Shown in pieces: positions 15,584-16,279 of a stretch of 64,000 bases of DNA. The notes under the pieces are model-generated. The model had not been told where the DNA came from. It searched no databases and was given only the letters and a program-made list of their open reading frames with translations. The stretch lies in sequence record NZ_CP081674.1; one strand, 5' to 3'. The position numbers and the translations under genes are program-made. Within the stretch, counting starts at the first letter, position 1; every line of letters begins with the position of its first letter. Origin of the DNA: a plasmid.

Positions 15584-16279
15584 GTGTCGCTGAAAGAAGA
15601 CCTGGAGAAATATGTTGCGGAAACCCACAAGAACCAGTGGAAAACCCGCGACGGAACCCAGGTCCCAGACACCGACGACCTATCGCTGTCCAACGATGCC
15701 GTGAAACTCGAAGCCACCGTGCTATATGCCGACCTCGGCGGATCGACCCAGATGGTGAAGAACTACGACGACTGGTTCGCGGCCGAAATCTACAAGAACT
15801 ACCTTTACTGCGCCGCCCGGATCATCCGATACCAAGGCGGTGTCATCACGGCCTACGACGGGGACCGCATCATGGCCGTCTTCATCGGGGATTCCAAGAA
15901 CACGAACGCGGCCAAATGTGGCCTCAGAATCAACTACGCGGTTATCGAAATACTCCGGCCGGCCATCAAGAAGCAATACCCCAACAGCACCTTCAACCTC
16001 AAACAACGGGTCGGGATCGACACCTCAGACTTGTTCATAGCTCGCACCGGAATCAGGGGGAGCAACGATCTCGTATGGGTCGGGAATGCCGCCAACAATG
16101 CCGCCAAGATGGCCGCGCTGTCCACGGACTACCCGACGTACATCAGCGCGGACGTCTACTCCATGCTCAACGACTCATCCAAGTACGGTGGCGACCCCAA
16201 GCAGAACATGTGGACCCCTCTCGGCTCACGTGCACTCGGATACGACATCTACGGATCGACCTATTGGTGGAGCTTCTGA
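15584..16279 (+). CDS. class III nucleotidyl cyclase-like (CHD) domain protein, stand-alone, 231 aa
   Basis: ATVLYADLGGSTQM matches the FADIvGFT metal-Asp motif. GGVITAYDGDRIMAVF matches GG..k.iGDavMavF. RVGIDTSDLFIARTGIRGSNDLVWVGNAANNAAKMAAL matches RIGIHtGpvvaGviG....y..wGdtVNtAsRmes. GTG start with RBS gaaggag. The GC content is markedly lower than the flanks. Confidence 0.7.
   Translation: MSLKEDLEKYVAETHKNQWKTRDGTQVPDTDDLSLSNDAVKLEATVLYADLGGSTQMVKNYDDWFAAEIYKNYLYCAARIIRYQGGVITAYDGDRIMAVFIGDSKNTNAAKCGLRINYAVIEILRPAIKKQYPNSTFNLKQRVGIDTSDLFIARTGIRGSNDLVWVGNAANNAAKMAALSTDYPTYISADVYSMLNDSSKYGGDPKQNMWTPLGSRALGYDIYGSTYWWSF

Follow-up and report, generated by a model that had tools for sequence, protein, structure and literature searches.

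A Pycsar-type cyclase gene without an effector in the variable cargo of a mycobacterial conjugative element

What becomes of a Pycsar-type cyclase on a mobile element in which no effector is found for it to signal to? The question was raised by a gene in a 64,000-nucleotide stretch of plasmid DNA from Mycolicibacterium houstonense (NZ_CP081674.1; the whole stretch is called the window below). A first-pass annotation had read this gene as a minimal, stand-alone class III nucleotidyl cyclase of the Pycsar type, carried by a mobile element and lacking a recognisable effector, and had left open whether it had an unrecognised effector or an anti-defence or regulatory role. The open reading frame was found as described; it starts with GTG, and an AGGAG motif lies 7 nt upstream. 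The features of the locus are collected in Table 1.

Table 1. Features of the cyclase locus and of the element that carries it (positions in the window).
Feature	Position	Strand	Basis
Stand-alone class III cyclase gene (pycC), 231 aa	15584..16279	+	PADLOC, Pfam, PDB, model
Intergenic region 5' of the cyclase gene, shared divergently with the DUF4226 gene; holds AGGAG	15414..15583	+	Near-identical in L001
Synteny breakpoint 3' of the cyclase gene	16277..16372	.	blastn against L001
202-aa gene, plasmid backbone	14095-14703	+	Syntenic with L001
Pro-rich DUF4226 gene, plasmid backbone	14682-15413	-	Pfam; syntenic with L001
DUF6036 minimal nucleotidyltransferase	16373-16972	-	Pfam, 2.9e-11
XRE-HTH gene	16969-17670	-	Pfam HTH_37, HTH_3
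2072-aa protein, methyltransferase region and SNF2/ResIII helicase	7811-14029	+	
TrwC relaxase	53746-60169		Pfam scan
Coupling protein	60216-61673		Pfam scan

The protein was searched against family profiles and solved structures. The Pfam Guanylate_cyc model (PF00211) matched residues 43-198 with 26.9 bits (cut-off 21.9) as the single domain of the protein, and two PADLOC profiles for PycC were matched, PDLC00766 (E=5e-100; residues 1-230, against a profile of 232 positions) and PDLC02367 (E=2.6e-96). All four class III motif regions were recovered (ADLGGST at residues 49-55, YDGDRIMAVF at 91-100, VGIDTS at 143-148 and GNAANNAAKM at 167-176), although the third reads G-I-D-T-S and not GI-D/H-T-G as had been stated. 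The nearest solved structure was 7R65 (7r65_A; E=1.6e-64, residues 2-230), which is BcPycC, the cUMP synthase from Burkholderia cepacia LK29 and a member of clade B (PMC11224242), whereas the best value for a cyclase from outside Pycsar was 2.6e-8 (CyaB) and Ma1120 gave 0.26. An AlphaFold2 model (input, 30 homologs; pLDDT 94.8) had the expected CHD fold. It was matched to class III cyclases by Foldseek with a probability of 1.00, with a TM score of 0.94 and an rmsd of 1.6 Å to 7r65_A as against TM scores of 0.60-0.67 for physiological cyclases. An N-terminal α-helix is a hallmark of PycC cyclases (PMC11224242); in the model such a helix spans residues 3-16, and the alignment with BcPycC begins at residue 2. 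The family comprises 7210 proteins at E≤1e-10. No NCBIfam model names the cyclase, and its homologs are listed by NCBI as 'adenylate/guanylate cyclase domain-containing protein'.

The active site was compared with that of BcPycC by alignment. The aspartate pair D50/D94 corresponds to Asp52/Asp96 of BcPycC, and the catalytic pair of EaPycC superimposes with that of BcPycC (PMC11224242); from this superposition and class III convention, D50 and D94 are putative ligands of two divalent metals. In BcPycC, Y50/D94/R97 recognise UTP and exclude guanine (PMC11224242; 10.64898/2026.08.12.744502). These residues align to Y48/D92/R95 of the window cyclase, so that the specificity residues, which had been proposed as a check, are those of a pyrimidine pocket, and all five positions (D50, D94, Y48, D92 and R95) are invariant across the 30-sequence homolog alignment. 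Because Y48/D92/R95 match the uracil pocket of BcPycC, cUMP is the predicted product. Judged by sequence, the protein is a PycC-type cyclase of the BcPycC-like group, which is clade B of the original Pycsar classification (PMC11224242).

BcPycC and the window cyclase are of nearly the same length (229 and 231 aa), are 52% identical in the structural alignment and have the same fold, and they have in common the N-terminal helix, the metal-binding aspartate pair and the Tyr/Asp/Arg uracil pocket. They differ in their setting: BcPycC is part of a complete two-gene Pycsar system, whereas the window cyclase is without an effector for 15 kb upstream and 48 kb downstream. PucC of the Pucsar systems, a cGMP-forming sister branch of Pycsar-1, is likewise an immune cyclase that stands alone, forms dimers and has a catalytic framework in common with the window cyclase (10.64898/2026.08.12.744502). 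Compared by its description, PucC has a permissive pocket in which Glu118/Lys195 read guanine, whereas the window cyclase keeps the restrictive Tyr/Asp/Arg set of BcPycC. The physiological adenylyl cyclases of P. aeruginosa (CyaB, 3R5G) and M. tuberculosis (Rv1625c, 7YZ9) share the CHD fold and two-metal catalysis with the window cyclase, but are only 17-21% identical to it, superpose at TM scores of 0.62-0.67 and are without the PycC N-terminal helix, the pyrimidine pocket and the pairing with an effector.

A drop in GC content at the gene had been taken as a mark of horizontal insertion. The drop is real: GC is 56.9% in the cyclase gene, as against 63.0% for the window, 66-69% for the genes upstream and 61-62% for those downstream. 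The interpretation did not hold, however, since at third codon positions the gene is like its host (GC3 78.9%; neighbours, 67-79%) and the deficit is confined to the first and second positions (GC1, 0.50; GC2, 0.41). It is therefore due to amino-acid content, that of a conserved protein rich in Lys, Asn, Tyr and Ile, and not to foreign codon usage. Relatives of the cyclase in other hosts have a GC3 of 54-65%, so GC3 tracks the host, and the window copy shows complete adaptation to the replicon that carries it. Its low overall GC is no evidence of recent insertion.

An effector was searched for throughout the window. A PycTM HMM was built iteratively from ORFs adjacent to cyclase genes; on the PycTM ORFs of other loci it scores 54-300 bits. 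Run over all reading frames of the window, down to segments of 20 aa, it found nothing (best E=2.3), and nothing was found with a PycTIR query. Pfam scans of the 52 window proteins gave no cNMP_binding, TIR or PycTM domain, and none of these is a small multi-TM protein. A cyclase HMM matched the cyclase gene itself and no second cyclase in the window. A 12.9-kb Logan contig at the end of the window, reaching about 0.9 kb past the last full gene, held no Pfam-annotated gene there. The earlier statement that no effector is recognisable was thus borne out: of a known defence system, Pycsar, the locus has only a part, with the effector missing within 64 kb.

The neighbourhoods of related cyclases were collected from genomes, metagenomes, plasmids and exact-protein look-ups, which gave 61 distinct cyclase loci. 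A PycTM ORF was found within 2 kb of the cyclase in 48 of these; 10 were too short to judge, and three were apparent orphans. One of the three, L064, was rejected as an orphan, a protein with cNMP_binding and CAP12/Pycsar-TIR matches being encoded immediately upstream. Since L064 carries this CNBD-TIR protein, an effector adjoins the cyclase in 49 of the 51 informative loci (48 PycTM, one CNBD-TIR). The homologs are therefore not partnerless housekeeping cyclases, and the survey of neighbourhoods that had been suggested found a conserved partner. The two unpaired loci are the window and a contig designated L001, the cyclases of which are 95% identical. In the loci with the next-closest cyclases (L023 and L024; 86% and 84% identity) a convergent PycTM gene begins 35-57 bp past the cyclase stop, and in a Mycobacterium locus with a 79%-identical cyclase the gene order is second cyclase-like gene, PycC, PycTM. 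The genes 3' of the cyclase in L001 (109, 328 and 100 aa) had no effector identity in Pfam or PADLOC.

The actinobacterial loci with PycC and PycTM ('Pycsar-1', with 3-TM effectors of the pJV1-SpdB3 family) encode cyclases of the same length as that of the window and 38-86% identical to it. They are often plasmid-borne and often lie beside toxin-antitoxin or other defence genes; examples are found in Mycobacterium sp. GA-0227b, on pAO1 of Paenarthrobacter nicotinovorans and on pJCM18538 of M. arabiense. On actinobacterial plasmids the neighbour of the cyclase gene is annotated as 'Pycsar system effector family protein'. All of these loci have PycTM, and 27 of the 48 also carry a second cyclase-like gene, often very divergent (among them L002/L005, L007-L011, L016, L018 and L028-L030), whereas in the window a single cyclase gene stands without PycTM. 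In a common layout with several cyclases, PycC and PycTM are separated by a convergent ORF of some 250 aa that is weakly similar to cyclases. The extra-cyclase finding agrees with the 'Pycsar-1' loci as described (10.64898/2026.08.12.744502).

In keeping with the mobile setting assumed in the first-pass annotation, the window belongs to a conjugative element of the MOBF type. Besides the relaxase and coupling protein genes, it encodes an NlpC/P60 hydrolase, a WhiB protein and two DNA methylases. Plasmids of M. abscessus bolletii, M. arabiense, Mycobacterium sp. THAF192 and M. aubagnense have the helicase, the 202-aa gene and the DUF4226 gene in this order, with no cyclase at the position. As they occur there without it, the 202-aa and DUF4226 genes belong to the backbone and are no cyclase partners. 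Past the DUF4226 gene each plasmid has different genes (toxin-antitoxin pairs, IS256 or mer genes), and the cyclase is therefore the first gene of a variable cargo site. By pairwise protein comparison, the 227-aa gene of the window is unrelated to the gene of equal length that comes after DUF4226 in the M. abscessus plasmid.

The 3' end of the cyclase gene was compared with L001 by blastn. Positions 9587-16277 of the window correspond to 1-6694 of L001 at 89% identity, with no further match beyond; homology thus stops at 16277, within the cyclase stop codon. A block lying 2.5-6 kb 3' of the cyclase in L001 is found 28 kb away and inverted in the window. The end of homology and the displaced, inverted block place a rearrangement breakpoint at the 3' end of the cyclase gene. 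No inverted repeats that would explain the inversion were found at the breakpoint, and the 93-bp spacer that follows the stop codon in the window is without a PycTM remnant (PycTM HMM, segments of at least 20 aa). Megablast of positions 14000-18000 against PLSDB gave no match, and no close relative of the plasmid is present in that database. A sigma-70 consensus scan of the intergenic region 5' of the cyclase returned no promoter, a consensus that models mycobacterial promoters poorly.

Several further features of the element were recorded. Relatives of the C-terminal 709 aa of the 2072-aa protein occur on 1247 plasmids, which come from many phyla and of which about half are conjugative; the nearest relative, at 82% identity, is on plasmid 1 of M. 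abscessus bolletii 50594. The TrwC relaxase domain is split over two ORFs, 53746-55293 (profile positions 1-208) and 55355-60169 (227-285, followed by an AAA_30 helicase). The split recurs in an independent Logan contig (L031) and could reflect a gene that is truly divided, or a frameshift or stop common to both. At 20150-21607 on the minus strand, 4 kb from the cyclase, a 365-aa protein with XRE-HTH and M78 peptidase domains matches PADLOC RmrA, the RosmerTA antitoxin (E=4e-47); a 113-aa gene of no recognised family lies directly 3' of it, and the two are possibly a RosmerTA-type defence pair. Direct repeats of about 170 nt (20239-20409 and 33978-34149; 83-87% identical, 13.7 kb apart) enclose genes for a 759-aa tyrosine recombinase (23427-25706), a DUF6262 protein, a GjpA-type porin (26461-27930; NCBIfam 4e-76) and several lipases or esterases, and this segment may be a nested integrated element. 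The stretch from 28499 to 42453, the metabolic cargo of the element, is densely packed with genes for hydrolases and small-molecule metabolism, which encode a GDSL lipase, a dienelactone hydrolase, an esterase, four alpha/beta hydrolases, an amidase, an isochorismatase, a glyoxalase and an HxlR regulator.

Selection on the orphan cyclase was estimated against L001. The two cyclase genes differ at a dS of 0.46 and a dN of 0.025 (dN/dS 0.053); 13 of 67 changes are non-synonymous where 77% would be expected under neutrality (binomial p=1e-23). For the helicase beside the cyclase, dS is 0.44 and dN/dS 0.053. With a dN/dS equal to that of the helicase and a dS close to it, the cyclase has co-diverged with the backbone under the same constraint. 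At 95 columns with a conservation of 90% or more, the window cyclase and P0001, both orphans, have no deviations (0-10 in other members of the family), and dN to an outgroup is alike for orphan (0.151-0.165) and paired lineages (0.158-0.160). The orphan cyclase is not decaying; purifying selection acts on it with the same strength as on the backbone helicase. Part of this selection may date from a period when PycTM was still present, if the ancestor had an effector; the orphan state itself is known from only these two related elements, the window and L001.

More simply, the locus can be read as holding a Pycsar cyclase of the ordinary kind from which the PycTM partner has gone, and loss is inferred here rather than primary absence. 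The preferred reading, given a probability of about 0.6, is that the gene encodes a functional cUMP synthase, that a cargo site prone to recombination has lost PycTM or had it displaced, and that the cyclase acts via a receptor encoded elsewhere. Since purifying selection has been sustained, the cyclase is most likely still functional, which suggests a signal to such a receptor and, with it, action in trans. That a cyclase should act on a non-adjacent receptor is plausible because 27 of the 48 PycTM-paired loci feed one effector from several cyclases. Upon phage infection, the cyclase would convert UTP to 3',5'-cUMP, with D50 and D94 holding the metals and the narrow pocket formed by Y48/D92/R95 admitting uracil. 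In a complete Pycsar system the cUMP opens a pore of the 3-TM PycTM protein or activates a CNBD-TIR NADase, and the infected cell dies. With the effector half lacking, the cyclase of the window would not bring about abortive infection alone, and its effect would be exerted solely via a cUMP receptor encoded elsewhere in the cell.

The main rival reading is that the gene is an inert remnant, left when a recent recombination at the cargo site removed PycTM, with a cyclase that has stayed intact only because little time has passed and that is now functionless. Incomplete defence systems are common in the cargo of mobile elements, the site is recombination-prone in this plasmid family, no effector is found in the window and the breakpoint falls exactly at the cyclase stop codon, all of which such a remnant would account for. 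Against it, two elements separated by a dS of about 0.45 share both the orphan state and the junction, and it is unlikely that each lost PycTM recently and independently at one and the same nucleotide; the cyclase moreover has the dN/dS of the helicase and has kept every conserved residue. A functionless remnant is therefore regarded as somewhat unlikely, and a cyclase that still signals is preferred.

A bolder version of the preferred reading would make the two orphans members of a long-kept, effector-less lineage of Pycsar cyclases on mycobacterial conjugative elements. Such a cyclase would either sense phage as a detachable module, supplying cUMP to effectors of the chromosome or of another element, or serve the plasmid. 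This is considered a tentative and rather improbable proposal; if true, it would amount to a split, trans-acting form of cyclic-pyrimidine immunity. Literature searches returned no paper on orphan Pycsar cyclases.

A partner in cis of a non-canonical kind was sought among the genes that adjoin the cyclase, namely the DUF6036/XRE pair, the DUF4226 gene and the 202-aa gene. By Pfam, the DUF4226 protein and the DUF6036/XRE pair are the Pro-rich protein and the XRE/nucleotidyltransferase pair that had been noted as immediate neighbours. Some Pycsar-like loci have been reported beside pairs of HTH/WYL and Pol-beta nucleotidyltransferase genes (10.64898/2026.08.12.744502), to which the DUF6036/XRE pair might be compared. 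The XRE-HTH and DUF6036 genes overlap by 4 bp and are convergent with the cyclase gene, and so belong to a different operon; neither L001 nor any of the 60 other distinct cyclase loci has homologs of them. The pair gave weak matches to HigA/HipB-type antitoxins (NCBIfam), and resembles a toxin-antitoxin pair of uncharacterised type that is unrelated to the cyclase. With the other two genes assigned to the backbone, and neither a cNMP-binding domain in any of the candidates nor a small multi-TM protein in the window, an effector hidden among these neighbours is very unlikely, and the earlier suggestion of an unrecognised effector found no support in them.

A lone cyclase might also serve the plasmid by manipulating the cNMP immunity of the host or of rivals, triggering or desensitising resident Pycsar effectors or competing with other elements. 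In favour of this, selection maintains the gene on a conjugative element, with a large methylase-helicase gene beside it. However, every conserved residue of the defence-type PycC proteins is retained, a phage collection held nothing closely resembling the cyclase (a single match, at 27% identity), and constitutive cUMP would kill a host that carries the effector. No evidence was found for the anti-defence or regulatory role that had been considered, and such a role is held to be highly improbable. The PF00211 match and the NCBI names of the homologs might imply an adenylyl or guanylyl cyclase with a housekeeping role, of which mycobacteria have many, but this can scarcely be entertained given the far better match to BcPycC than to CyaB or Ma1120, the purine-excluding set of base-pocket residues and the nearly constant pairing of homologs with Pycsar effectors.

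The preferred reading, that of a functional cyclase parted from its effector, bears first on annotation: what the databases call an adenylate/guanylate cyclase is predicted to be a uridylate-type Pycsar cyclase, and the locus an incomplete defence system, which tools that need both Pycsar genes would not call a system. The cyclase belongs to a known family, and an effector-less defence gene in plasmid cargo is unsurprising; the selection signal is the sole feature of wider interest. An orphan cyclase under purifying selection of helicase strength offers a convenient natural case for the question of signalling from a Pycsar cyclase to a receptor encoded away from it.
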